From the IMG/VR virus record IMGVR_UViG_3300031962_000003, positions 4,223-68,222 of that record: a DNA stretch of 64,000 nt; one strand, given 5' to 3'. A program made the translations under genes and the position numbers. Source of the stretch: a virus. Below, one piece after another: positions 5,234 through 57,348 of the stretch; position 1 is the stretch's first letter, and the number at the start of each line of letters is the position of its first letter. A model generated the notes under the pieces. That model saw only the letters and a program-made list of their open reading frames with translations, was not told the origin of the DNA and searched no databases.

Positions 5234-5665
5234 ATGAACGTTTTCACCGACCAGGAGAAAGAGGCGATCCGGCGCGCCGTCGATGGGCTCGTCCGGCAGG
5301 GCTACACGCCGCCGGCGGCTCGGAACGCCGTCTGCCGGGCCGCTTGCCGACTGAAGGGGTCGGCCGACGCCGGCGTCGGTGCGCCGGCGGATGCGCCGGC
5401 TCCGGCCGCTCCGCTCTCCACCGAGGAGCAGGCCCTGAAGGACATCGCCGCGGCCGCGGCGAACCCGATCGTCGCCGAGGTCCGCGGTGCGATCAGCCCA
5501 TGGCTCTGGGTGACCTCGGTCGTCGGCTTCGTGACCGGCCTGCTCAACACGCGCCGGATCGGGAAGATGTACAAGGACTGGCGCGGCCGCTCCGAGGCCG
5601 GCCGTCGGCGGATGAAGGTCTCATTCGCGAAGAACCCGTCCCGCCGGCGACGGAGGCCCGCGTGA
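5234..5665 (+). CDS. membrane protein (leader + AGVG, TM, NP/Arg tail)
   Basis: LVRQGYTPPAARNAVCRA...DAGVG; TM ISPWLWVTSVVGFVTGLL; ends KNPSRRRRRPA. Confidence 0.6.
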   Translation: MNVFTDQEKEAIRRAVDGLVRQGYTPPAARNAVCRAACRLKGSADAGVGAPADAPAPAAPLSTEEQALKDIAAAAANPIVAEVRGAISPWLWVTSVVGFVTGLLNTRRIGKMYKDWRGRSEAGRRRMKVSFAKNPSRRRRRPA

Positions 5666-5964
5666 CCCTCATCAAGGTCATCGCGATCGTCACGGTCATC
5701 CTCCTCGTCGCGATCCTCATCCCGGTCCTCGTCGGGAAGTGGTTCTTCTGGATGCACCTCCGGCAGGCGGCGAAGATCCACCGTCCCTGCTTCCGGTGCG
5801 CGGCCCCGGCGACGACGGACTACATGGGCCTCCACTACTGCCGGATCTGCCGGGACGTCGTGAACGCGATGAGCGCCGCGGTCCGGCACGACCCTCCCTT
5901 CGGTTTCCCCGGAGCAGAAGGATACCTGGAGTTCCCCGAACCGGAGCACAAGAAGGAGCGATAG
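5662..5964 (+). CDS. membrane protein with Zn-finger
   Basis: GTGA overlap; N-terminal TM; CFRC...CRIC. Confidence 0.55.
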   Translation: MTLIKVIAIVTVILLVAILIPVLVGKWFFWMHLRQAAKIHRPCFRCAAPATTDYMGLHYCRICRDVVNAMSAAVRHDPPFGFPGAEGYLEFPEPEHKKER

Positions 5965-10960: not shown

Positions 10961-11016
10961 AGCGTCTCCGGGATCCGCGCGGCGGCCATGGCGGCCGCCG
11001 GCGGGTCCTAGGGGCG

Positions 11017-11769
11017 CTAGTTGCTGGACAGCGCGATCCCGCAGGCCGTGTCCATGAGCCCGTGAAGCGCCTGGGTCGCGACAGGGCGCTGGAAGAGCGA
11101 GCTGCCTTTCAGCGTCTCGGTGAAGGCGTTGAAGAGCCTCCAGACGTTCCGGCTCTTGGCGAACTCCGGGTGGCTGGGCGCGCGCCACTCCGCGAGGACC
11201 CGGGGGATCTGGGTGACCGGGACGATCCGCTGATCGAACGCCTGGACGACCAGGTCGTGCGCCTGCGCGGCCGTGAGCTCCTGGCCCTTGTACGTCGAGA
11301 TCCGACGGTCCTGGCTCCGGCGGGCGTCGCCGAGCTGCCCGATCGCGCTGCTGATCAGGGTCGGCAGGTCCCGGTCGACGTGCCGGGTGTGCTTCCGATC
11401 GATCCGGATGTCGCTGGAGAAGGACAGGTTCGAGCAGACGTGGACGCCGGCCCCGACCGCCAGGCCCGCCACGATCGACTTGTCGTGGCTGTTCCGGAGC
11501 CCGATCACCAGGGAGTAGTCCTCGTCGACCCGGCGCAGGTCCATCACCTGCAGGAGGCCGAAGTACCGCTCGCCCTCACGGGACAGGCAGTGAGCCTCGT
11601 TCACGACCTCCAGGCCGGCGCGCCGCAGGGTCGCGTCCACCTGGGAGAGCAGCCGCCCGTGCGCGATCGGGTACCAGCGGCCGTCGGCCGCCGGCGTCTT
11701 GACCGCGTCGACGAGCTCGCGCGTGACCTTGGGATCTCCGCCACCGATGTACAGGTCCAGCTTCTGCAT
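11017..11769 (-). CDS. DUF932-family protein
   Basis: PIAH, YFGLL, IGLRNSHDKS, VCSNL, RKHT, WRLFNAFTE; SD GGAG. Confidence 0.8.
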   Translation of the reverse strand: MQKLDLYIGGGDPKVTRELVDAVKTPAADGRWYPIAHGRLLSQVDATLRRAGLEVVNEAHCLSREGERYFGLLQVMDLRRVDEDYSLVIGLRNSHDKSIVAGLAVGAGVHVCSNLSFSSDIRIDRKHTRHVDRDLPTLISSAIGQLGDARRSQDRRISTYKGQELTAAQAHDLVVQAFDQRIVPVTQIPRVLAEWRAPSHPEFAKSRNVWRLFNAFTETLKGSSLFQRPVATQALHGLMDTACGIALSSN

Positions 11770-11808
11770 AGCAATCTCCTTCCGTGAGGCACTCGCCTCA
11801 TCTACCAG

Positions 11809-11838
11809 AGTATATAACCACGGTACTGTGGGTGTCAA
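11809..11838 (-). promoter_or_regulatory. sigma70-type promoter
   Basis: TTGACA-N18-TATACT on the - strand upstream of the DUF932 gene. Confidence 0.7.
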
Positions 11839-11854
11839 GTAGAAAACGGAATTC

Positions 11855-11878
11855 TGCACAGAATGGGGATTCTGTGCC
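11855..11878. repeat. 24-bp 9-6-9 site (motif 1)
   Basis: tGCACAGAA-tgggga-TTCTGTGCC. Confidence 0.8.
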
Positions 11879-11896
11879 ACTGGGAGATGGGTATTT

Positions 11897-12343
11897 CTAC
11901 CTGGAGGGGTGCTTTGGTGGCGCTCCGAAGTAGCCCTTGTAGGCCTTGGCGTATGCCCTGGCGGCTTCCTCTTCCGTCTCGAAGATCCCGAGCGTTAGGC
12001 GAGCTGTCCACCTTTCACCGAGACGTCCAACGCCTCGATACCTCGAGGCCGCATTCCGGTGCTTCCGTCCATTCCTGGTATTGACCGAGCGACTGGTTGG
12101 CGTGATGTTCTTCCTCTGGTTGTTCAGGCCATCCCCGTCCTCGTGGTCGACCATCCCGACTCCAGTGGTGAGTCCGAGAATGAACCGGTGGAGACGGGTC
12201 CACCGTCCGTTGACTCGACCTTTCACGTAGATCAGGCCGTTTGGCCTTGGATCCGGGAACCAGCTATACTTCGAGACGCGCTCGAAGTCCTCGTCGTCGA
12301 CGAGCGCCGACAGGCCTTCCTTTCCGACCGGCACACGTTTCAT
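11897..12343 (-). CDS. HNH endonuclease with AP2 domain
   Basis: ALVDDEDF...LHRFI...VDHEDGDGLNNQRKN; SRYRGV...LGIFETEEEAARAY. Confidence 0.85.
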   Translation of the reverse strand: MKRVPVGKEGLSALVDDEDFERVSKYSWFPDPRPNGLIYVKGRVNGRWTRLHRFILGLTTGVGMVDHEDGDGLNNQRKNITPTSRSVNTRNGRKHRNAASRYRGVGRLGERWTARLTLGIFETEEEAARAYAKAYKGYFGAPPKHPSR

Positions 12344-12462: not shown

Positions 12463-12504
12463 TTAAAAGGCCGCGGGGCCGGCATCCCTGGCGGCCCCGC
12501 GGCC
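12463..12504 (-). terminator. rho-independent terminator
   Basis: 13-bp GC stem 12469-12481/12492-12504 followed by TTTTAA on the - strand. Confidence 0.7.
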
Positions 12505-14661: not shown

Positions 14662-15105
14662 CTAGTCTTCTCTGATACTGGCCCAGCGCTCGAGGGAGTC
14701 TCGGAGCTCCATCGGGAGATCCGGGTTCGTTATCTTCATGGCCTGTTCGAGCGACATCCCCTGAGTCACGACCAGGAGCGCCGCGGTCACCGCCATCGAT
14801 CGATTCTGGCCGGCCGCGCAGTGGACTAGGACACGGTCAACGGCCCGGTAGAAGCCGATCGCCGCCTCGAAGCAGGCGGGCCCCGTCGGGATCGACTCCT
14901 CGATCGGGAGCATGAGCCTCGGGATCGTCGGATCGTACGGGACGGCGATCTCCCAGGCCGTGTTGATGACGCCGCCGATCAGATGCTTCTTCCAGCGACC
15001 GTCCATGCCGCAGAGGAACCTGGCGGCGGCCTGGTCGCCCTGCAGGATCTTCCCTTGTGCGTACCTCTTCACCTTGACGGGTGGCTCGGCCATGCTAGCC
15101 CTCAC
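14662..15105 (-). CDS. dual-specificity/tyrosine phosphatase family protein
   Basis: CX5R loop VLVHCAAGQNRS. Confidence 0.85.
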   Translation of the reverse strand: MRASMAEPPVKVKRYAQGKILQGDQAAARFLCGMDGRWKKHLIGGVINTAWEIAVPYDPTIPRLMLPIEESIPTGPACFEAAIGFYRAVDRVLVHCAAGQNRSMAVTAALLVVTQGMSLEQAMKITNPDLPMELRDSLERWASIRED

Positions 15106-15994: not shown

Positions 15995-16324
15995 CTAAAT
16001 CTCGGTCGGTGAACGCCACTCACGCTTCGGCTTCGGCTCCTTCGAAGCAGGTTCGTCACCATCGAGTTCCTCGCGCGTGACACGAGTCTTCCCGACGGCG
16101 TTCAGGCGTAGATACGGGATCCTTTTGACGACGACGACCTCCCAGTTGTCAGGCTGGTCGGCAGCGACGTTGGCGGCCGCCAGCGCATCGTTCGGGTTCT
16201 CGAAGACGCCGCCGTTGTCCTTCGCCGGGTCGATGATCCGGACCCAGTCGCGCTGCTTCGTCTCGGCGTTCAGCGCGGCCTTCTGGGCCCAGACCTCGTA
16301 GGTGTCCTGCTCGCCCTTCGCCAC
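15995..16324 (-). CDS. hypothetical protein (YEVW domain)
   Basis: SD GAGGA; paralogous to the N-terminus of 15391-15969. Confidence 0.55.
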   Translation of the reverse strand: MAKGEQDTYEVWAQKAALNAETKQRDWVRIIDPAKDNGGVFENPNDALAAANVAADQPDNWEVVVVKRIPYLRLNAVGKTRVTREELDGDEPASKEPKPKREWRSPTEI

Positions 16325-16335
16325 GGCATCCTCCT

Positions 16336-16686
16336 CTACTTCTCGGACGACCGACGACGAACAGTCGGACCCGTCGGGCCGCCGGGGGCCGGCGGAGCCT
16401 CAACGACGCTGCCGACGGGGTGCGGGTCGTCCTCGAGGAAGTCATCCTCGACGGCGATCGCCACGGGGTTCACCGAGAACTCTTCGAGGGAGATCCAGAC
16501 GAGCGGCCGGCGGTCCTCCGCGGTCGACTCGGCGGAGGCGAACAGGACCTCGTCGCCATCCTTCCGGACCGCGAGGATCGCGCCCTCCTCGTAGACGACA
16601 TCGATGATCGGCTTCCCGTCCTCGATCTTCGAGTTCTTTTTGGCACGGAAACCGATCGGACCGGCCGGCAACCAGAGCACGTCCAT
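16336..16686 (-). CDS. hypothetical protein
   Basis: SD AGGGAG before ATG. Confidence 0.55.
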   Translation of the reverse strand: MDVLWLPAGPIGFRAKKNSKIEDGKPIIDVVYEEGAILAVRKDGDEVLFASAESTAEDRRPLVWISLEEFSVNPVAIAVEDDFLEDDPHPVGSVVEAPPAPGGPTGPTVRRRSSEK

Positions 16687-16697
16687 GCGATTCTCCC

Positions 16698-16726
16698 TTG
16701 CTTTACGAAGTTTCCAGGACTAGACT
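16698..16726 (+). promoter_or_regulatory. sigma70-type promoter pointing into an intergenic structured region
   Basis: TTGCTT-N17-TAGACT. Confidence 0.6.
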
Positions 16727-16732
16727 ACCCAC

Positions 16733-16925
16733 ATGAGGTAAGCTCACGCGGGGAGACGGAGGAAGGCGCAGGGATCTGCGCCCTCTTCTGTTTCCCCCTC
16801 TCTCCAGGGCTAGGCCGCCTTTGAAAGGGAATGAGCTGCCCGCCTGTTGCGGACGGTAAAAACCTCGAAGCGGTGGCCTGGCTCCAATTGGGGAGCTGTA
16901 AGCAGCTCTCCAGTTGGAGCCAAAA
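16733..16925 (+). ncRNA. putative pseudoknotted ncRNA (~190 nt)
   Basis: Long hairpins 16750-16797 and 16880-16921 whose G-U pairs favour the + strand; long-range pairings; own promoter. Confidence 0.6.
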
Positions 16926-16927
16926 TC

Positions 16928-17401
16928 TCAGGGGAAGTTCAGGCACGAAAACCCTCCTTGTACTTTCATTGCCACCTTGTCATAGGCGCGCGCGGCCTTA
17001 ACTTCTGAGTCAAAGACACCGAGAGACCGTGTCTTCCCGTCGATCTTTATGTTCGCACGCCAACCGCTTCTGTCAGCCGCGTAGTACACACCCTTGAATC
17101 GTTTCCCTGTGGAAGGCCTACGGTTCCTTCTGTTTTGCGTCCCCGTGCAGATCCTCAGGTTACGACGCCTGTTGTCGAGCCCGTCATGGTTCCTATGGTC
17201 AACTTCCTTCCCCTTTGGAGATCCAGCGATGAGTCGATGCATGAAGATTGTCCCACGCGCCCCGGACTCGAACCTAACGTTTGCCTGCGCATACCAGGTC
17301 CCGTTTTTACTCCTCTTCGCGAACCACTTGAACGGGCAGACGATGTAGTAATCGACCTTGTTGATGGTTGCGTACTTTCCAAGATTCAGGCTAATTCTCA
17401 C
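16928..17401 (-). CDS. HNH endonuclease with AP2 domain
   Basis: MHRLI...VDHRNHDGLDNRRRNLR; FKGV...WRANI...LGVFDSEVKAARAYD. Confidence 0.85.
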   Translation of the reverse strand: MRISLNLGKYATINKVDYYIVCPFKWFAKRSKNGTWYAQANVRFESGARGTIFMHRLIAGSPKGKEVDHRNHDGLDNRRRNLRICTGTQNRRNRRPSTGKRFKGVYYAADRSGWRANIKIDGKTRSLGVFDSEVKAARAYDKVAMKVQGGFSCLNFP

Positions 17402-17592
17402 AGCCCCGTCACCCGCTTCCAGATCTCGACAAGCTTCTTCTCCTGGTCCACGGACAGTGCAAGGTCGAAGGCAAGCAACCCGTTCATGTCGTTCAGGAAT
17501 TTGTCTTCCCACTCCGTGATCTCGGCGCGATCCTCGGTGACCTCCCGGTAGATCACCTCGATCATGTTCGCCAGGTCCTTCGCGTCACTCAC
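17398..17592 (-). CDS. hypothetical protein
   Basis: ITEWEDKFL...LSVDQEKKL, overlap chain. Confidence 0.55.
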   Translation of the reverse strand: MSDAKDLANMIEVIYREVTEDRAEITEWEDKFLNDMNGLLAFDLALSVDQEKKLVEIWKRVTGL

Positions 17593-17921: not shown

Positions 17922-17945
17922 GGCACAGAACACAGCTTCTGTGCC
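17922..17945. repeat. 24-bp 9-6-9 site (motif 1, perfect arms)
   Basis: GGCACAGAA-cacagc-TTCTGTGCC. Confidence 0.85.
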
Positions 17946-17979
17946 GTTTATCTTCCACCAAGAAGATTACCTAGGGAGA

Positions 17980-18795: not shown

Positions 18796-18828
18796 AAATC
18801 CTCCATTTATTATCTTCTGCCGAGAAGA

Positions 18829-18957
18829 TTACCTAAGCACGACAATGGCTACGTCTCCGCAGTCTCGGCACTTTATTTTCACGGTTCCTTTTGAGCCTTG
18901 CGGCAACGTTATCTTTGCTGCGTTCTTGCAGGACTTACAGCGCGCTTTTATGACCAT
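18829..18957 (-). CDS. 42-aa Zn-ribbon protein (not in ORF track)
   Basis: MVIKARCKSCK...IKCRDCG...VLR, fills the gap between motif-2 copies. Confidence 0.55.
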   Translation of the reverse strand: MVIKARCKSCKNAAKITLPQGSKGTVKIKCRDCGDVAIVVLR

Positions 18958-18978
18958 GCTTTCTGCCAAGAAGATTAC

Positions 18979-19209
18979 CTAGGGGAGGTCAGGAACCAGC
19001 AAATCACGGTTCACGACAAAGCAGGATGGGCATATCACGACCACCTGTCCAAGCGCCATCAGATCCGATATCAGAAGAGGCTGGCAATCTGCGCAAAAGA
19101 ACACGTTTCGTTGGCGGCATTTTGAGCAGGTGAAGTTAGGGTCTCCAAACTCCCCGCAGCCGGACATCCGGCATTCTGGCTTCCCATCCTTGAACTTCTC
19201 TCTGACCAT
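18979..19209 (-). CDS. small Cys-rich Zn-finger protein
   Basis: Several CxxC pairs; SD AAGGT. Confidence 0.55.
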   Translation of the reverse strand: MVREKFKDGKPECRMSGCGEFGDPNFTCSKCRQRNVFFCADCQPLLISDLMALGQVVVICPSCFVVNRDLLVPDLP

Positions 19210-21472: not shown

Positions 21473-21496
21473 CGTCTCTCCAGTGGCACTCTAGTC

Positions 21497-21772
21497 TCAT
21501 TCTATGCCTATTTGAATCGCTTTTTTAGTTTTTCTTGCCCTCTTCATCCTGTACAGGCTGGCGAACTTCCGGATCTCCTCGATCTCGATCCCCTTCAAGC
21601 AGTTGACCAGGTCGACCACCCGACGCGCGTCTCTCATGGACTGGCTGGTGTCGAAGCCGCCGAAGGCCGCGATCGTCCTTCCGCCACTCGTCCCGACGTA
21701 GGTGCAGTTCACGCTCTGCCTCGTTACGCGCCAGCGGCCAGGCGTGTGCTTCATGCCGTCCGGTTTAGCCAT
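21497..21772 (-). CDS. phage hypothetical protein (KHTPGxW family)
   Basis: MKHTPGRW...DARRVVDLVNC. Confidence 0.6.
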   Translation of the reverse strand: MAKPDGMKHTPGRWRVTRQSVNCTYVGTSGGRTIAAFGGFDTSQSMRDARRVVDLVNCLKGIEIEEIRKFASLYRMKRARKTKKAIQIGIE

Positions 21773-21775
21773 TCT

Positions 21776-21979
21776 TCACCTTTTCTGTACAACTACACGC
21801 TTTGCCGACTTAACTAAAAAGTCGTGATGCTTCTTGCAGTCATCGCATCGATGGTATGAAAATCTACCGATTTTATAACTCCACCTTGAGGCTACTCCAC
21901 ACTGCTCAATAGAAATTCCACGAAGAACGACCTGGCCGCACGGACGACCACGTTTCTTAAGGTGCTTCCAGGTTTTCAC
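21776..21979 (-). CDS. small Cys-containing protein
   Basis: GTG inside a motif-1 site; ends VVQKR in the next site. Confidence 0.5.
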   Translation of the reverse strand: MKTWKHLKKRGRPCGQVVLRGISIEQCGVASRWSYKIGRFSYHRCDDCKKHHDFLVKSAKRVVVQKR

Positions 21980-21982
21980 TCT

Positions 21983-22129
21983 TCACCTTTTCTGTGCCAA
22001 CCTACGACCGGGCTTTAGCCTCAAGCACTGACAGCAGTAGAGTCTCGTCTCCTTGTGGATAAATCCTTCTTTGCTCTTCCCCGTGACGATCCACTTTGCT
22101 TTGCAGTAGCAGTGTTTCTTGCAGAGCAC
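21983..22129 (-). CDS. 48-aa Cys-rich protein (not in ORF track)
   Basis: MLCKKHCYCK...YCCQC...LAQKR, bounded by motif-1 sites. Confidence 0.45.
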   Translation of the reverse strand: MLCKKHCYCKAKWIVTGKSKEGFIHKETRLYCCQCLRLKPGRRLAQKR

Positions 22130-22137
22130 TCTTTACC

Positions 22138-22521
22138 TCACTCTACTCTTGTCCAAAGCTCTAGTTTGTATAGCGGGATCGGTAGCTTCCGCGCTGGGGC
22201 ATACGGAGTTCCCCACGTTTCGTCGATGGTCTCGTCAGCCCATTCAACGAACCCTTCCTCCGGAACAACGACGAGGATCTCGTCGCCGATCTGAGGAGGC
22301 GGAGGCTTCTGCCCCTGGACCCATGGCTTCTCGGTGTTCGTCACGGTCGTCCGGATGATCTCCATCGTCGCCAACGTCGCGTGATCTCCGCGCACGAGCG
22401 ACCAGAACCCTCCACCGTGAGAGCAGAACTGGCGGATCTCGATCATCGACGACCAGACGAACGGCTCCTTCCGGTACTTCCCGGCCGCGCGAGGATCTCG
22501 GAAGGCCACGTAGTGCTGCAC
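22138..22521 (-). CDS. hypothetical protein
   Basis: GTG with SD GAGGT provided by the site spacer. Confidence 0.55.
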   Translation of the reverse strand: MQHYVAFRDPRAAGKYRKEPFVWSSMIEIRQFCSHGGGFWSLVRGDHATLATMEIIRTTVTNTEKPWVQGQKPPPPQIGDEILVVVPEEGFVEWADETIDETWGTPYAPARKLPIPLYKLELWTRVE

Positions 22522-22542
22522 TCTTTACCTCTTCTGTGCCAA

Positions 22543-22767
22543 CTAGGCGAACTGCTGCTCAACGACCTCTTGCCCATGCTTCTTGCCGTGGGCTCGGTAC
22601 GCATCCCTGACGGCGTAGAAATGCTCGCGGCAATACTGCTTATCCTCGTTGCCGATCATATCTGGCCGATAAACGACCAGCCGGACAACCGGCATCTTGT
22701 CGCACGTCTCTTCGGCACATTTGATCGGGTACTCTTCTAGGCGAATCATTTTCTTCTCCTTTACCAA
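22543..22767 (-). CDS. small Zn-finger protein
   Basis: CAEETC...YCREH. Confidence 0.5.
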   Translation of the reverse strand: MVKEKKMIRLEEYPIKCAEETCDKMPVVRLVVYRPDMIGNEDKQYCREHFYAVRDAYRAHGKKHGQEVVEQQFA

Positions 22768-23156
22768 ATCTCAAACCCGCCGCACTTCTTTAGGAAGTCG
22801 ACGAACTTCAGGAGGTGCGGCAACTTAATCGAATAGATCGCTGGCGTCTTCACGTCCATCCCCTGTTGGGAGAGTTGCTGCATCAGGCCAACTTCTGGTC
22901 CTGGAGAACACTCGAGGACCATTACCTGCTCACCCTTCGGCCAGTCATTCTCGACAAACTCCTGTAGAGCCATCGCGAGCCGGTCGCACTCGTCCTGGGT
23001 CTTGAGGCCGTTGCCGTCGTTGTATTCCCAGCCGTCGATCGTCAGGCCGAGGGAGAAGAGCCGATTGACGTGCTCACAAAGAGAGTGGATCGGCCGCCAA
23101 GACCAGACCGATGCATCGAAGTTGCCGCCTTTGGTCCCGGTTAGAGACATGCCCAT
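22761..23156 (-). CDS. phage hypothetical protein
   Basis: SVWSWRPI...NDG...FVDFLKKCGGFEIW; SD AAGGGAG. Confidence 0.65.
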   Translation of the reverse strand: MGMSLTGTKGGNFDASVWSWRPIHSLCEHVNRLFSLGLTIDGWEYNDGNGLKTQDECDRLAMALQEFVENDWPKGEQVMVLECSPGPEVGLMQQLSQQGMDVKTPAIYSIKLPHLLKFVDFLKKCGGFEIW

Positions 23157-23191
23157 ATAAGCTCCCTTGGCACTCAATCTGCCTTCTGTGC

Positions 23192-23488
23192 CTACGCTTT
23201 CTTGGTGTACACCGGCCGTTCCCTAAGCGCCTCCGCCGCCTTCCAAGCGGAGAGGGCGCGAGCCTCAATCTTGTCTGTCGTCGGCATCCACTTGAGCCGA
23301 CACTTGCTGTTGAGGATCAGATTCGCCATCGCCTTCGCGTAGTCGACGAGATCCTGGTCATTCTGGCAAACGATCCCGAGACCGCAATCCCCGCGACGTG
23401 CCATGAAGACCGGGATCATGATCGCCGCGTACAGCTCGACCTTATCCTCCGGAGACATCCGGATCTCTTCCTTCTTCGGCTTCTTCAT
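23192..23488 (-). CDS. hypothetical protein
   Basis: Bounded by motif-1 sites; SD AAGGGAG. Confidence 0.55.
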   Translation of the reverse strand: MKKPKKEEIRMSPEDKVELYAAIMIPVFMARRGDCGLGIVCQNDQDLVDYAKAMANLILNSKCRLKWMPTTDKIEARALSAWKAAEALRERPVYTKKA

Positions 23489-23521
23489 AGTTCTCCCTTG
23501 GCACTCAATTCGGCTTCTGTG

Positions 23522-23776
23522 TCAATTGCTGGGAACCGTTTTATCTTCGACCGTGAACGGGATCGCTTCCTTCTGAAGCTCCCTCTTCATGTCCACAAAG
23601 CAGTTTGGGTGAATGAGATCGACGTCTCTGTCGATCTGGATCTTGTGCGCCATGTCTCCAGGGACGACGCGACCGCCCTTCGGGCAGAGTGAAAACGCGC
23701 AGCCCCAGTGACCGAGGAGGTTGTACGGTGGCGCCTTGCCGTCGAACTTGAAGGTTTCGAGAATCGTTATCTTCAC
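23522..23776 (-). CDS. hypothetical protein
   Basis: GTG after GGAGG; bounded by motif-1 sites. Confidence 0.5.
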   Translation of the reverse strand: MKITILETFKFDGKAPPYNLLGHWGCAFSLCPKGGRVVPGDMAHKIQIDRDVDLIHPNCFVDMKRELQKEAIPFTVEDKTVPSN

Positions 23777-23802
23777 TCTGCCCTCCCTGGCACTCAATAG
23801 GT

Positions 23803-23994
23803 CTACTGTGCCGCCCGCTCGCGGCGCTTCTCGATCATATCGAGGCACAGCGGACAGCTCGGATGCGTGATGAAGTGGACCGCGAGCGCGACTTCCTTCG
23901 CAAACGGGTCCATGTTCAACTCGCATCCGAGGTGCTCTCCTAGGATCTTCGCAATCACCAGATACTCCTCGTGCGTCTTCTTCATGGCACTCAT
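23803..23994 (-). CDS. small hypothetical protein
   Basis: Start and stop both lie within motif-1 sites. Confidence 0.5.
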   Translation of the reverse strand: MSAMKKTHEEYLVIAKILGEHLGCELNMDPFAKEVALAVHFITHPSCPLCLDMIEKRRERAAQ

Positions 23995-24002
23995 CTCGGT
24001 TT

Positions 24003-24515
24003 CTATGCCAGCCGAGTCCCCATCTTCCGGTGGATCCGCTCCAGCACAGCCTCGTTCAGATTGAAGGATCCGTTCGGATCCGAGAGCGCCAGGCGGACCG
24101 CGCAGATCACGAGATCGGCGACGTACTTCTCGACCGACTCCTTCTGGAAGGCTTCCGACGAGCCGTGGTGGTCCGCCTCCTCGACCATGTTCTGGAGCAT
24201 TACGGCGGCCTTCAGGACGTGCTTTAGGGCGTGGTCGAAGTCCTTGTACTTCGACGGGGAGTTCTTGAACTGTTCGCTGTAGAGCTCGTCCGTCCAGAGT
24301 TTTGGGAGCTCTTTCTGAAGGATCCGGAGGAGGTTCCCGCGCTCCTTCGCTCCCATTTCGATATGCCACGCCACGTCCGAGACGCGATCGAATCCTTTCT
24401 CCGGGGTCGGGTACTTCATCCCAGCCATCTCGATCAGGAGCTCGTCGAAGAGTTCCTTACGGCCGGCAACCTTCCCGTTCTCGAACGCGCGTTCTGTGTC
24501 GTTCACCGACAGCAT
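24003..24515 (-). CDS. hypothetical protein, MazG-like helical C-domain possible
   Basis: HALKHV...VEE...VADLVICA pattern. Confidence 0.45.
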   Translation of the reverse strand: MLSVNDTERAFENGKVAGRKELFDELLIEMAGMKYPTPEKGFDRVSDVAWHIEMGAKERGNLLRILQKELPKLWTDELYSEQFKNSPSKYKDFDHALKHVLKAAVMLQNMVEEADHHGSSEAFQKESVEKYVADLVICAVRLALSDPNGSFNLNEAVLERIHRKMGTRLA

Positions 24516-24525
24516 AGCTCTCTCC

Positions 24526-24870
24526 TTAATCCGCGATCCGCTCCAACATGACGACAGCCCGGTACTTCCCTTCCGTAAGAGACTCGTGCCCGAGGAATCC
24601 TCGGAGTTGGAAGTCTCCCTCAGGAACTCTCAGAGCGAACCAGGCCTGCCGGAGCTGGTGGATCTGAAACTCCGTCACCATGATGTGCGAGAACCGCTCG
24701 AAGGCCTTTTCCGGGATGTCGTGCGCCATCTTGACGATCGCGCCGACGTCCCGGCTAACGCGGGCGACCTCCCGCTTCGCCTCGTCGGCCTGGTTCGAGA
24801 TGCTGCACTGGAGATCTTTCATCCGCGCCTCGCCGTTCGCTACCAGGCGCTCGATCGCTTCCTTGAACAT
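24526..24870 (-). CDS. hypothetical protein
   Basis: SD AGGAGG. Confidence 0.55.
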   Translation of the reverse strand: MFKEAIERLVANGEARMKDLQCSISNQADEAKREVARVSRDVGAIVKMAHDIPEKAFERFSHIMVTEFQIHQLRQAWFALRVPEGDFQLRGFLGHESLTEGKYRAVVMLERIAD

Positions 24871-24899
24871 GCTCTCCTCCTTCTGGTACTAGATCCTGC

Positions 24900-25295
24900 T
24901 TAAAATCTCTCTGGAAGATTCCTATGGGCGATCGGCTTCGGACGGGACTCCTCCTCCGGCTCGCCGGTCGGCGGCGCGGCCATGGATCCGTCCGGCGGCG
25001 GCGCGTGCAGGGCGATCTGCTGTCTGAGCCTGGATCCCGGCCGACGCCTCTCGAAGGCCGCCCAGACGATCTCGTCGGCCGCGTTCACGATGTCGTCGGG
25101 CGGGTACGAGAAGATCCCGGTCGACGGGTTCGCTAGGACCCCCTGGATCACCGAGCAGGTCAGCTGATCGAGGAATGGGTCCTGCAGCTCTTTGTTCCGG
25201 ACGAGGAGTGCCTCGAGCTTTTCGTCCCGCTCCTTGGTGGTGACGCGCTGCTCGGACTTCGGGATCTTCGACAGCTCTCGCTTCTGGTCCATCAC
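24900..25295 (-). CDS. hypothetical protein
   Basis: VIQGVLAN motif, operon packing. Confidence 0.5.
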   Translation of the reverse strand: MMDQKRELSKIPKSEQRVTTKERDEKLEALLVRNKELQDPFLDQLTCSVIQGVLANPSTGIFSYPPDDIVNAADEIVWAAFERRRPGSRLRQQIALHAPPPDGSMAAPPTGEPEEESRPKPIAHRNLPERF

Positions 25296-25489
25296 CGCAC
25301 CTTCCTTCTACTGTGCTTCCGGATCTCCCGAACGAACTCCTCGAGACGCTCCGGCGTCACCCGAATCATCGTGTAGGCCGTCGGGGAGTTAGCGGCGGAC
25401 GGACCTACGATCTCGTACTCCGCCGAGTCGGACTTCCGGAAGATCGTGAAGCCGCCGACCTCCGCGACTCTCTCGTCGAGGGACGCCAT
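25292..25489 (-). CDS. hypothetical protein
   Basis: SD GGAGG before ATG 25489. Confidence 0.5.
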   Translation of the reverse strand: MASLDERVAEVGGFTIFRKSDSAEYEIVGPSAANSPTAYTMIRVTPERLEEFVREIRKHSRRKVR

Positions 25490-25798
25490 ACCCCCTCCTT
25501 CGCAATTCTGTTCATCAGGACTTGACTCTTTCCAAATGTCATCCGAAGCGTGCAGACACGGGTCTGAGCCACGACGTTCCAGCGCTGGACGTCCTCGTGG
25601 TGGTGGATCTCGACGACCGTCATCTTCCGCCTGGTCCCCCACTCGCGGGTGATCATCAGGACGGTCTTCTTACAGGCCGGGCACTTCATCTGCCCTTCTT
25701 CCTTGCGACGGCACAGAGAATCCCCCAGACGAAGACCGCGACCGCCAGAGCGAGCGCTCCGTGCAGGTACCACGGAATCTCTTCCCTCACAGGTCACC

Positions 25799-26047
25799 TC
25801 AGGCCACAGGCTCGGCGAGGGGCCGATTCGCCACCGTCGCCGGACCGCACTTGAAGCCAGGGTCGAGCTTCGCGAGCTCGCCGGCGAGCTGCTTCCGGAT
25901 CTGGACGAGGGACTTGTCCGCCTCCTCGAGCGCGATCTGGGCTCGCATCTTCGTCGACGTGAGCCGTTCGACCTCGAGCTGCTTCTCGGCGAGCGTCGCG
26001 GTGATCGCCGCGATCCGCTTGACGACTTCTTCCTTGTTGTCAGCCAC
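25799..26047 (-). CDS. small coiled-coil protein
   Basis: GTG after GGAGG; heptad pattern. Confidence 0.55.
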   Translation of the reverse strand: MADNKEEVVKRIAAITATLAEKQLEVERLTSTKMRAQIALEEADKSLVQIRKQLAGELAKLDPGFKCGPATVANRPLAEPVA

Positions 26048-26067
26048 GCTATCCTCCTTCTGGTTTC

Positions 26068-26568
26068 CTAAGCCGAGGCTCTCAGTACGACCTGCCAGTC
26101 CACCCGGGCCACGAGCCACGGGCAGTCCGGCCACTCCGAGACGTGCCCGTAGCCGGCGTCCTGGACCGCCGAGATCACGTCCCGGGTCCGCCACCAGGAC
26201 CGGTGCGCGATCCCCGGGGCGGCGTCCGGGTACACCGTGTAGTGCGAGACGATCTGCTGGAGCAGCTTGAAATCGACTGACGGGTGGTTGCAGCGGTCCA
26301 GGACCGGCACGACCAGGACGAGCGCCGCCGCCGGGGCCTGCTGGCGGACGAGCCGGATGAACCGATGCGCGTCCTCCGGCGTCTGGTGCTCGAGGAAGTG
26401 CCCGGCGAAGACGAGCTCCGCGCCGGCGTAGTCCAGCTTGAAGGCGTCCCCGTAGAGAACGGGCCTGCCCGCGTGGCTCGCCGCGGGGGACGTGACGTTG
26501 ATGTCGTAGTTCTCGAAGGGCGACTGGATGGGGTACTGCCCGCACCCGACGTTAATGTGCCTTCCCAC
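26068..26568 (-). CDS. SAM-dependent methyltransferase-like protein
   Basis: INVGCG, NYDI, GDAF, FAGHFLEH, VVP. Confidence 0.7.
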   Translation of the reverse strand: MGRHINVGCGQYPIQSPFENYDINVTSPAASHAGRPVLYGDAFKLDYAGAELVFAGHFLEHQTPEDAHRFIRLVRQQAPAAALVLVVPVLDRCNHPSVDFKLLQQIVSHYTVYPDAAPGIAHRSWWRTRDVISAVQDAGYGHVSEWPDCPWLVARVDWQVVLRASA

Positions 26569-26571
26569 GAC

Positions 26572-26880
26572 TCAGCCCTTGACGATCCGGCAGTAGATCT
26601 CGCGCTCCTGCATGACGAGGTAGGTGTCACCCTCGATCGTCACCTCGGTGCCGGCGTTGTGCTTGAACGCGACGCGGTCGGAGGTCTTGACGGTCATCGG
26701 GTGCCGCCGCGTCCCGTCCGCGCTTCCGGCGACGAACAGGCCGGGCCCGACCGCCACGACGTCGCCCTCGTCGGCGATCGAGACGCTGTCCGGGAGCAGG
26801 ATCCCGCCCTCGGTCTTCCGGGAGCCGGATCGCTTAACGATCACGTAGTCATGTAGGGGTGCCGGGACGAGCTTCGCCAT
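26572..26880 (-). CDS. groS: co-chaperonin GroES
   Basis: PLHDYVIVK...KTEGGILLP...GDVVAVGPG...VKTSDRV...GTEV...YLVMQEREI. Confidence 0.9.
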   Translation of the reverse strand: MAKLVPAPLHDYVIVKRSGSRKTEGGILLPDSVSIADEGDVVAVGPGLFVAGSADGTRRHPMTVKTSDRVAFKHNAGTEVTIEGDTYLVMQEREIYCRIVKG

Positions 26881-27226
26881 CGTTCTTCCTCCTTCTGGTG
26901 ACCTTCGGTCTCCTACGACGTACCGCCTCGGCCCGGAGACGCCGGGCCTCGGCACGAGCTTTCTTCTTCGTGAACGGGCCGCCGGCGACGAGCCAGCGGT
27001 GCGTCTTGGCGTCCATCATCAGGATCCCCCAGCCGTTCTCCTTGCACTTGTGCCCCTCGTGCGGGCACATAAACGGAAAGAGGACGACGATCTCGCCGCG
27101 GATGATCTTCCGGCCGGCCTTCAGCTTCCGGAAGCAGGCCAGGTCGATCTCGCCGATCCCGCCATTTTCCGGCAGGCCGCGCTCGCAGGCGATGCAAAAC
27201 GACTCGGCGAACTTCTCTTCGGTCAC
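26849..27226 (-). CDS. hypothetical protein with CxxC
   Basis: GTGA overlap with the recombinase stop. Confidence 0.45.
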   Translation of the reverse strand: MTEEKFAESFCIACERGLPENGGIGEIDLACFRKLKAGRKIIRGEIVVLFPFMCPHEGHKCKENGWGILMMDAKTHRWLVAGGPFTKKKARAEARRLRAEAVRRRRPKVTRRRKNDGEARPGTPT

Positions 27227-27996
27227 CGCAGCTTCTCCATCAGCTTCGAGACCTTCTCCTCGCTCGTGTGGACGTAGATCTTCGCGAGCTCCAGGCTCGA
27301 CCAGCGGAGCTGGGTCCGGACGTAGTTCCAGTCGAAGCCGGCCTCGATCAGTCGACTGGCCCGCGTGTGCCGGAGGATGTGGATCAGGCTGGCGCGGTCC
27401 GGCTTGACGGCGTCGAGGATCTCCTCGAAGACCCGCTGCATGGTCCGGCGGGCGACTGGGAACAGGAGCTCGTCGGGCTGGAACTTCTCGACCCACTTCC
27501 GGAGCAGGCGGACGAACTCGCTCTTGTTGTCGAGGTCGACCGGCAGCTGCGGGTGGCCCTGCTTCTTCTCGGTCGGGATCCGGACGATCGACATGGACCC
27601 GTCCTTCCACTCGAGGTACGTCTTCCGGATCGAGAGGGTCTCCCCGAGCCGGCAGCCGGTCTCGAGCGTGAACCAGAGTGCCATCCGCATGTGCTCGTCC
27701 TCGAGGGCGCGGATCTCCTTCAGAGTCGTCCGGTACTCCTCGTCACCGAGGAACTTCCGGCTGTCGATCGCCGTGTTCGTCGCGGCCGACATTCCCTTGC
27801 TGTACTTCGACCGGCAGCAGCCCTCCGTGCAGGTGATCACCTTCCGGCGGCCGTCGAAGAGGACCTTGATCTTCCGCGGACACTTGTGGCTCGGCGGCGT
27901 GCAGACCTTCGCCCGGCCGCCCATGTTGTACCGGGCCAGGTAGGCCCGGCCGCAGACGAAGCAGGTCGCCTTGACGCTGTAGTCGGTCTTACTCAC
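27223..27996 (-). CDS. tyrosine recombinase with N-terminal Cys-rich (Zn) domain
   Basis: TGCRLGE (R), TEKK (K), HILRHT (HxxR), LRWSS (W), KIYVH (Y); N-terminal CFVC...C...C...CTEGCC. Confidence 0.9.
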   Translation of the reverse strand: MSKTDYSVKATCFVCGRAYLARYNMGGRAKVCTPPSHKCPRKIKVLFDGRRKVITCTEGCCRSKYSKGMSAATNTAIDSRKFLGDEEYRTTLKEIRALEDEHMRMALWFTLETGCRLGETLSIRKTYLEWKDGSMSIVRIPTEKKQGHPQLPVDLDNKSEFVRLLRKWVEKFQPDELLFPVARRTMQRVFEEILDAVKPDRASLIHILRHTRASRLIEAGFDWNYVRTQLRWSSLELAKIYVHTSEEKVSKLMEKLR

Positions 27997-28244
27997 GTCG
28001 TCAGCGTCCCCATACGGGCCTCGCCGATGCGCATCGCCAGGAGCTCGTAGAGCTCCTCGGCGCAGTGGATGTGCATCTGCATCCGGACGTCCTTCTTCGC
28101 GAGGACGAGATTGACCGTCGCGGTCACCTCGAGCGCGATCGATCCCTTCTCGACGTCCTTCGGGCAGACCAGGCACTCGCTCCCGTCCCCGAGGACGACC
28201 TTGAGCTTGTCGTTGATCATTGTCTCTTTCCTCTCCACCACCAT
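27993..28244 (-). CDS. small Zn-binding protein
   Basis: CLVC...HIHC; overlaps the recombinase start. Confidence 0.5.
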   Translation of the reverse strand: MVVERKETMINDKLKVVLGDGSECLVCPKDVEKGSIALEVTATVNLVLAKKDVRMQMHIHCAEELYELLAMRIGEARMGTLTT

Positions 28245-28318
28245 CCGACGGCGACTCCGAGCCAGAACATGATCGTACCGGTAAACGTTCCAACGAACTC
28301 GACCTCTGTTATCATCTA

Positions 28319-28342
28319 GGCACTCAAGTTCTGTTCTGTGCC
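28319..28342. repeat. motif-1 site upstream of the recombinase operon
   Basis: GGCACTCAA-gttctg-TTCTGTGCC. Confidence 0.85.
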
Positions 28343-28462
28343 AATCTACTCCACGCCATCTTCCAGGTCAATCGGTTTACGGTCGTGTATACTCCAGTCG
28401 AAGACACGCCCCAACGGGGCCGAGGCCTGGTCGGGCTGTTCCGATTGGACCTCGGCCCTACT

Positions 28463-48664: not shown

Positions 48665-48692
48665 AGTATAGCGCTCTCTGTCTAATTGTCAA
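48665..48692 (-). promoter_or_regulatory. sigma70-type promoter of the early arm (divergence point)
   Basis: TTGACA-N16-TATACT on the - strand; an AT-rich TATAAT at 48717-48722 may serve the + arm. Confidence 0.65.
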
Positions 48693-48734
48693 GCATCCCT
48701 TGCTTTTTTCCTAATATATAATAACCTACAGGGG

Positions 48735-55990: not shown

Positions 55991-57148
55991 ATGATCGGAG
56001 CGCTCGTATTCGCAAACCCTGGGAATCCGCCGCGGCGTGTAACCGCGGCTCGGCATAGACCGCCCGCGAGGGCGAGGAGGACACACATGGCTCGCATGAA
56101 GGTGCGGCGGCGCAGACGGGCCGCCAACCCCCGCGGCTTCATCAAGTACCGCGGGCGGCTCATCGCGTCGGCTCCCTACTTCAGTTCGGGACGCGTCGTC
56201 CCGAAGCGCCGGAAGCGTTCCGGCTCGCGTCGTCGTCGTACCAGCTCCCGTCGCCGTCGGGTGATGGCGAATCCGCTGTTCCGCTCCCGTCGGAGCGGTC
56301 GGTACAAGAGCCGGGCTCCCGGCCGCCGGCTGCACCACTACCGGCGCGGCCAGGGCTGGCACCTGGCGAACAACCCGCCGCGCCGGCGTAGTCGCCGGTA
56401 CTCGGCGAATCCCCGTCACTACTCCCGCCGTCGGTACAGGTCGAATCCCGGCCGGCGTCGGGTCAGCCTTCTGTCGAACCCGATGGGGGCGATCGAATCG
56501 CTCGTCCGTGAGGCGTTCTCCGGCGACACGATCGAGACGGCTTTCCACACGGGCCTGGGCTTCGGTGGAGCTCTCGCCGGCATGAAGGCGCTCACCGCGT
56601 GCTTCCCCGCGCTGAACACCCAGTGGGCCAGGACCCCGGCGGTCCTCGGGGCCGGCCTGGCCGGCAGCCTGCTGCTCGGGATGCTCGGCGGAAAGTCCAT
56701 GGGCGTCCGGGCGGTCACCGGCACGGTCCTCGCCACGCTGTGGCAGGGCGTGTCCGAGGTCGTCAAGGGCACCGCGGCGGCTCAGTGGATCCCGACGCTC
56801 GGCGAGGGCCCGGAGGCCGAGGCCTTCCGGAAGGCGATCGAGCGCGAGGTCCTCAAGGAGCTCCAGGGCGGCGGCGGACCCCAGTCGACCGAGGAGGGGA
56901 TGTCCTACTACCTCCAGCCGGCCGGCGTGTCCGAGGCGTACCTGAAGCCCGCGGGCAGCGCGGCGTACCTGCAGCCCGCCGGTTCGTCGGCGTACCTGAC
57001 GATGAACGAGTCCGAGGCGGCTCAGCGTGGCATGGGCCACGGCGGGATGTCCGCCTACCTGACCTCGAGTGAGGCCACGGCCGCTCGCGCCGGCATGGGC
57101 GACGCGGATGCGGAGTTCGGAGGCCGGGACCTCCCGGAGCGCTTCTAA
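55991..57148 (+). CDS. Arg-rich NP-repeat protein with hydrophobic core and YLxPAG repeats (putative DNA-condensing/membrane protein)
   Basis: Protamine-like N-half with 8 NP; hydrophobic helices; YLQPAG/YLKPAG/YLQPAG; two GMG motifs. Confidence 0.7.
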   Translation: MIGALVFANPGNPPRRVTAARHRPPARARRTHMARMKVRRRRRAANPRGFIKYRGRLIASAPYFSSGRVVPKRRKRSGSRRRRTSSRRRRVMANPLFRSRRSGRYKSRAPGRRLHHYRRGQGWHLANNPPRRRSRRYSANPRHYSRRRYRSNPGRRRVSLLSNPMGAIESLVREAFSGDTIETAFHTGLGFGGALAGMKALTACFPALNTQWARTPAVLGAGLAGSLLLGMLGGKSMGVRAVTGTVLATLWQGVSEVVKGTAAAQWIPTLGEGPEAEAFRKAIEREVLKELQGGGGPQSTEEGMSYYLQPAGVSEAYLKPAGSAAYLQPAGSSAYLTMNESEAAQRGMGHGGMSAYLTSSEATAARAGMGDADAEFGGRDLPERF

Positions 57149-57348
57149 ACGAAGGCTATCGACTCCTTCTGGTCGGAGGTCTGGGTCTTCCAGGGCCCAG
57201 ACCTCCCTGACCGGGGTTCCCGAGTGGAGCGCCGATCAGGGAACAGGGTCTTGTGGTTGCCGTCCCTGTCCCGCGGACGTATGGCGAGAGCCTCGCGGTA
57301 TGTCACCGCCGTCCGGAAAACGGCACGAGTTCTCGAAAGGAACTGACC

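Follow-up and report, generated by a model that had tools for sequence, protein, structure and literature searches.

A highly structured spacer at an endonuclease-cassette site of a soil phage, and its possible reading as an antisense RNA

The gap and its surroundings

What occupies a 241-nt stretch between two genes of a phage gene arm whose genes mostly overlap or are closely packed? The window, the whole stretch of DNA analysed here (64,000 nucleotides; bases 4223–68222 of a 68,222-bp soil viral record with a completeness estimate of 94%), contains a minus-strand gene arm spanning about 8.7–48.6 kb. Within this arm, as a preliminary description of the locus had correctly placed it, lies a gap at 16687–16927 with a GC content of 0.58, flanked by an HNH-AP2 gene and an open reading frame (ORF) of 116 amino acids, both on the minus strand. 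The description proposed that the gap encodes a pseudoknotted, self-promoted non-coding RNA of about 190 nt, read against the arm. Our analysis shows a genuine spacer here, non-coding, highly structured and specific to the lineage, at a site of cassette exchange. The reading that we favour for it, tentatively, is a plus-strand small RNA, which would be cis-antisense to a minus-strand read-through transcript.

The downstream neighbour of the gap, the 116-amino acid ORF (16336–16686, minus strand), has no assigned function, and its product gave no match in Pfam and PHROG searches. Its GC contents at the three codon positions (0.70/0.45/0.87) are those usual for the minus-strand arm, and it has a good Shine-Dalgarno (SD) sequence, AAGGGAG on the minus strand, at 16693–16699. 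On the other side of the gap is a free-standing homing endonuclease gene for a protein of 157 amino acids (16928–17401, minus strand). The HNH_3 (2.2e-08) and AP2 (2.5e-05; 24.9 bits, below the Pfam cut-off of 33.3) domains expected for this neighbour were both found, together with a match to phrog_99 (4.4e-30). The GTG start codon, at 17401, overlaps the TGA stop codon of an upstream 64-amino acid ORF (17398–17592, minus strand) in the sequence GTGA.

The gap is non-coding. Small ORFs within it (16725–16946 on the minus strand; 16831–17001 and 16847–17008 on the plus strand) lack the codon-position GC pattern of the arm and were rejected. On the minus strand, the frame of the HNH gene stays open for 68 codons past its UGA, to a TAA near 16721 (16721–16930). 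Read-through of this UGA was also considered and discarded; the open frame is judged to be due to chance (about 9%, by an analytic estimate) and its product would be of low complexity.

Among the genes of the record are those for a D5-type primase-helicase, for helicases and glycosyltransferases, and for a tyrosine integrase (27223–28293); because of the integrase, the phage is probably temperate. The structural arm begins past 48.7 kb, and no terminase is found near the gap. Searches for DNA similarity to deposited phages gave no match (with 401 nt in a distant search and 10 kb in a near one), nor did a tblastn search of deposited phages with one structural protein. Several other features of the window were noted. 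The integrase gene is accompanied by a strict promoter-like site (28371–28343), and a dual-specificity phosphatase-like gene (DSPc, 1.3e-08) is present at 14662–15105. Short direct-repeat families, D17, D8 and D5, occur at gene junctions in the lower-GC part of the minus-strand arm, at about 17.9–28 kb (17948–17973, 18810–18835 and 18956–18981; 21478–23810; 21770–28345). Small inverted repeats and leaders with an SD sequence are among them, and the families may be phage-specific regulatory or promoter motifs.

Hairpins, folds and RNA families

Hairpin 1 (16750–16771 pairing with 16776–16797, loop GGAT) has 22 positions, which on the plus strand form 18 Watson-Crick pairs, three G-U pairs and one A-C mismatch; a 22-bp hairpin had been claimed here and, with this one mismatch, is present. 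Hairpin 2 (16879–16898/16903–16922, loop TAAG) has 20 bp on the plus strand, 18 of them Watson-Crick and two G-U. It had been described as a 19-bp hairpin at 16880–16921, so the hairpin itself stands and its extent is corrected to 16879–16922. All five plus-strand G-U pairs of the earlier account, three in hairpin 1 and two in hairpin 2, were found again. When both strands of the window were folded in sliding windows of 50 nt (about 16,000 per strand), the two hairpins ranked second and third, hairpin 1 with energies of −39.9 kcal/mol on the plus strand and −32.6 kcal/mol on the minus strand. A strand-symmetric search for uninterrupted stems of at least 12 positions gave ten in the 64 kb, hairpins 1 and 2 being the longest.

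The first rank among the 50-nt windows is held by 10965–11014 (−41.2 kcal/mol on the plus and −32.9 kcal/mol on the minus strand), a GC-rich hairpin just past the stop codon of a DUF932 gene (11017–11880). Like both gap hairpins, it is stabler on the plus strand despite the minus-strand genes around it.

Folded as RNA, 16728–16925 has a minimum free energy (MFE) of −112.2 kcal/mol on the plus strand (z −7.9) and −101.9 kcal/mol on the minus strand (z −6.35), and none of 200 shuffled sequences was as stable in either case. The structure of the gap is thus real and exceptional, far above chance. Both the MFE and the centroid fold of the plus strand consist of three nested, tandem stem-loops: hairpin 1, a central domain and hairpin 2. 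The C/T-rich linker CTCTCTCCA (16798–16806), which follows hairpin 1 on the plus strand, is unpaired in both folds, and its complement is SD-like. A search for a second copy of the linker motif in the window was unproductive, with three matches against 4.2 expected. The central domain (16807–16884) is closed by a 13-bp helix (16807–16819/16872–16884; ten Watson-Crick and three G-U pairs) around a small inner hairpin. Its fold shifts with the boundaries chosen, other boundaries giving an alternative fold. An 11-nt direct repeat was also observed, with copies TCCAGGACTAG (16713–16723) and TCCAGGGCTAG (16803–16813) spaced by 90 nt; the first overlaps the −10-like hexamer of the promoter-like site described below and the second leads into the central helix.

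No membership in a described RNA family was found, as the preliminary description had stated. The 4227 models of Rfam 15 gave no match at gathering score in the whole window. At E ≤10, the region 16500–17100 yielded 17 sub-threshold hits, all on the two hairpins: 14 to microRNA-precursor models, two to STnc40 and one to gut-2. Their E-values are 0.2 or worse, and the best reaches 21.4 bits against a threshold of 60. ARAGORN found no tRNA or tmRNA gene in the window. The step from there to a new class of non-coding RNA is unsupported, coming from a single sequence that has no terminator.

The earlier account further envisaged a pseudoknot, and with it a ribozyme, a guide RNA for the HNH-AP2 protein or a recombinase, or a packaging RNA. 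The pairings on which this was built exist. The helix between CTAGGCCGCC (from 16810) and GGTGGCCTGG (from 16872) is present in the sequence at 16810–16819/16872–16881, as are GAGGT (16735) with ACCTC (16862) and AGCTCA (16741) with TGAGCT (16832). However, the MFE and centroid folds are nested, and a pseudoknot is unnecessary because the nested three-stem fold already accounts for the energy. Pairings as short as 5 and 6 bp are expected several times by chance per 200 nt (an analytic estimate, not a simulation); those seen here compete with the main helices and are used by the minus-strand fold. No ribozyme or HNH-associated RNA family matches the gap. The HNH protein is a small, free-standing homing endonuclease, and nothing links the structure to it as a guide: a relative without its gene keeps the 5′ two-thirds of the element, and its homologues lack a comparable hairpin (see below). 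The only recombinase found is the tyrosine integrase, about 10 kb away and thus not adjacent, and no terminase lies near the gap. We consider all these roles highly improbable.

Cassette exchange and relatives

The closest relative of the locus is a 1211-nt contig from run X2, which belongs to another soil study. It matches the window at 16126–16335 and 16430–16885 and resumes at 17404, within the 64-amino acid ORF, which it shares from there on; in place of 16886–17403 it has 141 other letters (joint 16885>17404). Over 16430–16885 (456 nt), the two sequences differ at 32 positions and by one gap. Hairpin 1 and the central domain are inside this shared block, while all but the first 7 nt of hairpin 2 are in the segment that the contig lacks. 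The HNH gene, along with almost the whole of hairpin 2, thus makes up an insertion or replacement cassette of 518 nt that is absent from this relative. A cassette origin fits the third-position GC content of the HNH gene, 0.66 against 0.87–0.91 for its neighbours. Its domains, its presence/absence polymorphism and its deviating composition are those of a free-standing homing endonuclease cassette.

The joint inside hairpin 2 means that the proposed RNA of about 190 nt is composite and not one conserved unit, its 3′ third, hairpin 2, being absent from the close relative. By this sequence comparison, the gap itself is a composite, with 16687–16885 shared with the relative and the cassette bringing 16886–17403. 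Even without the HNH gene, the relative retains a long gap, of 199 shared and 141 other nucleotides. This speaks for a slot occupied by something that is not an accessory of the HNH gene.

Beyond the X2 contig, relatives are few. A search of 5.8 billion proteins with the 116-amino acid protein returned three, the window's own and two from short Logan contigs (P0002 and P0003); P0002, from the X2 contig, is 89% identical to the window protein, and P0003 is encoded on a contig of 1074 nt. Among viral contigs there is one locus (L002 and L005, the same contig), and no relatives were found in metagenome contigs or in genome contigs. L002 is a 67-kb viral record whose protein is 54% identical over the best aligned segment. 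It has a 123-nt gap before the homologous gene, and in this gap a hairpin of 11–14 bp at a similar distance upstream of the gene. This hairpin was set aside as evidence of covariation; the alignment is ambiguous, pairing it with hairpin 1 (MAFFT) or with the central helix (by eye). The neighbouring 64- and 69-amino acid proteins gave no relatives.

The element itself was found only once. In the phage's own genome it matches itself alone, BLAST at E ≤10 finds nothing in the genomes G001–G003, and the phage, viral-contig and other collections contain no match. The exact 19-mer of hairpin 2 has no match in viral contigs. A covariance model built from the single sequence gave only self-hits in the phage's own genome (G000) and nothing in G001–G003; run over 15 loci, its best hit (E 0.21) lies in another gap of L002. 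Fourteen loci with HNH homologues of 35–60% identity were examined, of which 13 have downstream sequence (L012 has none), and in none of these 13 does a comparable hairpin follow the stop codon. In L016, L003/L004 and L008, the 90 nt downstream form irregular structures on the sense strand, with energies of about −29 to −31 kcal/mol; L003 and L004 are identical across the folded 90 nt.

A second HNH-AP2-like paralogue was observed in the window at 11897–12343 and in L002 at 5291–5725 (phrog_99, 5e-24); in the relative G001 it is conserved, with 63% identity, at a syntenic position. A canonical minus-strand terminator (12469–12504, then TTTT) lies before it, and after it comes a strict sigma-70-like site (11838–11809) in front of the DUF932 gene.

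Two explanations that need no RNA have to be weighed against this mosaic. The structure could act at the DNA level, tied to cassette exchange, as a recognition, cleavage or recombination site of the homing endonuclease or as hairpins extruded from replicating single-stranded DNA. Between close relatives a cassette is indeed replaced at the gap: the left joint coincides with the HNH start, and the right one falls within hairpin 2. A D5-type primase-helicase is among the products of the phage, and the DNA-parameter folds of the two strands are equally good (z −4.8 and −4.6). Homing sites, however, are usually asymmetric and located in the allele without the gene. The gap has no iterons or repeated copies, its direct repeats (only the 11-mer with one mismatch and an 8-mer) being near chance by estimate. 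A DNA-level repeat element, which the preliminary description had named as a finding that would speak against an RNA, is likewise not seen: the rest of the genome contains no copy, and the collections searched gave no match. A role in the DNA is regarded as unlikely.

Alternatively, the palindromes might have no function, being decaying leftovers of indels at a recombination hotspot that are tolerated in a non-coding spacer. Their single occurrence, without homologue or known family, and the mosaic nature of the region between relatives would agree with this. Against it, the 199 nt of the gap that lie in the shared 456-nt block have diverged similarly to the adjoining coding sequence, although the count of 32 differences and one gap is pooled over coding and non-coding positions. 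The two stems, of 20–22 positions, are moreover the longest of the 64 kb and have no mismatches other than transitions, and are unlikely to persist without selection. We think that mere debris is an improbable explanation.

Transcription signals, strand and comparison with known systems

The claim that the plus strand folds better as RNA is upheld by the energies and z-scores given above, and the difference counts for a plus-strand RNA. In the central domain, the plus strand is above chance (z −2.7) and the minus strand at chance level (z −1.05). With DNA parameters the strands are near-equal (−50.6 versus −48.2 kcal/mol), and the asymmetry of the fold is therefore specific to RNA. It is not a general property of the minus-strand arm, where no folding strand bias was found (mean difference +0.24 kcal/mol). 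The mismatches of hairpins 1 and 2 point in the same direction, with five G-U pairs on the plus strand, which would be A-C on the minus strand, against one G-U pair on the minus strand. This 5:1 ratio is only suggestive, our own two-sided binomial figure being about 0.2; other hairpins of the minus-strand arm lean the same way (5:2), and those of the plus-strand arms are even (7:7). Both hairpins are detectable without a choice of strand. The central helix was picked on the plus strand, and its three G-U pairs are for this reason not independent evidence.

The candidate promoter, TTGCTT-N17-TAGACT (16698–16726, plus strand; hexamers at 16698–16703 and 16721–16726), is correctly placed upstream of the stems, 24 nt before hairpin 1. 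In this respect the placement given in the preliminary description stands; the quality of the site is less convincing. Of the 12 positions of the sigma-70 consensus it matches only seven, a quality met about once per 299 nt per strand, and a scan requiring 9 of 12 found no site in the gap. Its −35 hexamer also overlaps the complement of the SD sequence of the 116-amino acid gene. The strict pattern TTGnnn-N16–18-TAnnnT occurs 14 times on the plus strand of the 64 kb, the gap site included, and six times on the minus strand, with none on the minus strand of the gap. Five of the six minus-strand sites are in the minus-strand arm, all starting with TTGAC or TTGTAC. Four of them (48692, 44178, 28371 and 11838) are plausibly placed before minus-strand genes, and the fifth (35329), inside a short ORF, is uncertain. 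A strict plus-strand site at 48700 points towards the gene with which the plus-strand arm begins. Because the same pattern marks plausible promoters before other genes, the host polymerase probably reads such sites.

On the antisense strand of L002, TTGCAG-N17-TACATT is in register with the window site, without a gap; TTGC and TA.A.T are kept and the 17-nt spacer has otherwise diverged. This counterpart is the only comparative support for a plus-strand promoter, and it is weakened because the −35 hexamer is the complement of a conserved SD context.

At the switch between the minus- and plus-strand arms, back-to-back sigma-70-like sites were seen in an AT-rich stretch (48665–48727), TTGACA-N16-TATACT on the minus strand and TTGCTT-N16-TAACCT on the plus strand. 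This is probably a divergent early promoter region.

An end for such a transcript would be harder to place. Neither hairpin, on either strand, is an intrinsic terminator in the sense of a GC-rich hairpin followed by a T-run. Hairpin 2 is followed by AAAATC on the plus and GGCCAC on the minus strand, and hairpin 1 by CTCTCTCC on the plus and GCGTGAGC on the minus strand. On the plus strand, the sequence is A-rich after hairpin 2 and C/T-rich after hairpin 1, which counts against a small RNA. From the gap, a terminator scan picked up no more than a 7-bp inner portion of hairpin 1, which has a C/T-rich tail. Canonical minus-strand terminators with T-runs do occur in the arm, at 12469–12504 (16 bp) and 17922–17945 (nine pairs). 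Elsewhere, a perfect 14-bp hairpin (57169–57218) follows a plus-strand gene for 385 amino acids (55991–57148) without a T-run and is stabler on the sense strand (−37.1 versus −28.2 kcal/mol); hairpins lacking a T-run may be usual 3′ signals in the host of this phage.

The absence of a T-run also bears on the close rival of the antisense RNA, a possibility to which we give somewhat less credence: the hairpins may act within the minus-strand polycistronic mRNA, by RNase III-type processing and/or as a 3′ stabilizer or insulator, with no independent RNA gene. They would then separate the imported HNH cistron from the 116-amino acid gene and the genes after it. The arm genes are all on the minus strand and tightly coupled, no promoter for the downstream genes is seen in the gap, and without a T-run on the minus strand read-through to these genes is possible. 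On that strand hairpin 2 begins only 6 nt past the HNH stop codon, and the fold as a whole is itself far above chance. The stems of 20–22 bp exceed the phage's canonical terminators, and their length and intercistronic position would fit, by analogy, an RNase III-type hairpin. The L002 hairpin extends by three further pairs (one G-U) on the sense strand only, which also counts against a plus-strand RNA.

A report on T4-like phages (PMC2988022) describes hairpins upstream of free-standing endonuclease genes that sequester the ribosome-binding site, or poly(U) terminators; such flanking of free-standing homing endonuclease genes by regulatory hairpins or terminators favours the mRNA explanation. 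As in those phages, a free-standing HNH gene is located here in an intergenic slot, dependent on upstream promoters and flanked by stable RNA structures (PMC2988022). In contrast to the cases in that report, the HNH start is here coupled to the upstream ORF through GTGA, and the hairpins are downstream and lack a U-run. What speaks against hairpins acting in the mRNA is that on the minus strand the two carry five A-C mismatches for one G-U pair, that the central domain is at chance there, and that none of the 13 HNH homologue loci has such a hairpin after the stop codon. Hairpin 1 and the central domain are present in the relative without the HNH gene and hence are not accessories of that gene.

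Returning to the antisense RNA, for the part shared with the relative a plus-strand RNA may be the functional form, as sequence and predicted fold tentatively suggest. Transcription would start at about 16733, just past the promoter-like site, and the RNA would consist of tandem stem-loops: hairpin 1, the C/U-rich single-stranded linker and the central domain, continuing in this phage into hairpin 2. Over its whole length it would be complementary to the minus-strand transcript that reads through from the HNH gene into the 116-amino acid gene. Acting as a cis-antisense regulator, it would pair with this transcript into a long duplex. A double-strand-specific RNase would cut the duplex, and the cistrons on either side would change in stability or translation. 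The C/U-rich linker may also act in trans on SD sequences. Against a plus-strand RNA are the structure of the minus strand (z −6.35), the lack of hairpin 2 in the X2 relative and the covariance search, which found no homologue in G001–G003 or in the 15 loci. The fullest version of the idea is more doubtful: an as yet undescribed small RNA of a phage, transcribed from a promoter of its own in the direction opposite to a 40-kb arm and located in an endonuclease-cassette hotspot, with G-U-containing stem-loops around an anti-SD linker, controlling downstream read-through or HNH expression and remodelled at its 3′ end by the cassette.

If a plus-strand RNA is made, the locus would exemplify antisense control in a lineage of soil phages that has no cultured relative by the tblastn search with one structural protein, and a homing-endonuclease cassette would have landed inside an RNA gene and reshaped it. 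If the hairpins act in the mRNA, they would be intercistronic signals of an ordinary kind. In both cases what is firm is modest, a lineage-specific structured spacer in which the 190-nt unit combines older and cassette-borne parts.

Among known systems, the HEARO or omega-RNAs of IscB-type HNH nucleases, an Rfam family, share with the gap that a structured non-coding RNA candidate adjoins an HNH nuclease gene. They differ in that the gap has no match to Rfam, at gathering score or at E ≤10, that the protein here combines HNH_3 with AP2 and is not IscB, and that in the relative the RNA-like part is present although the HNH gene is absent. The intercistronic RNase III hairpins of phage T7, of about 20 bp or more, have no U-run, allow read-through and are on the sense strand. 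Here, too, long stem-loops lie between cistrons without a U-run, but the sense (minus) strand carries five A-C mismatches against one G-U pair, and cleavage would be putative.

The OOP RNA of phage lambda is a short cis-antisense RNA transcribed from its own promoter against a polycistronic operon and ending at a canonical terminator; it is complementary to an intercistronic/3′ region and acts via duplex formation and cleavage by a double-strand RNase. OOP is shorter than the RNA proposed here, which is predicted from sequence, shows no terminator, has stems of 20–22 bp and is unrelated to OOP in sequence. The proposed RNA would resemble OOP in having its own promoter, in its direction against an operon, in its full complementarity to the opposing transcript, in acting through a duplex cut by a double-strand RNase and in belonging to a probably temperate phage.
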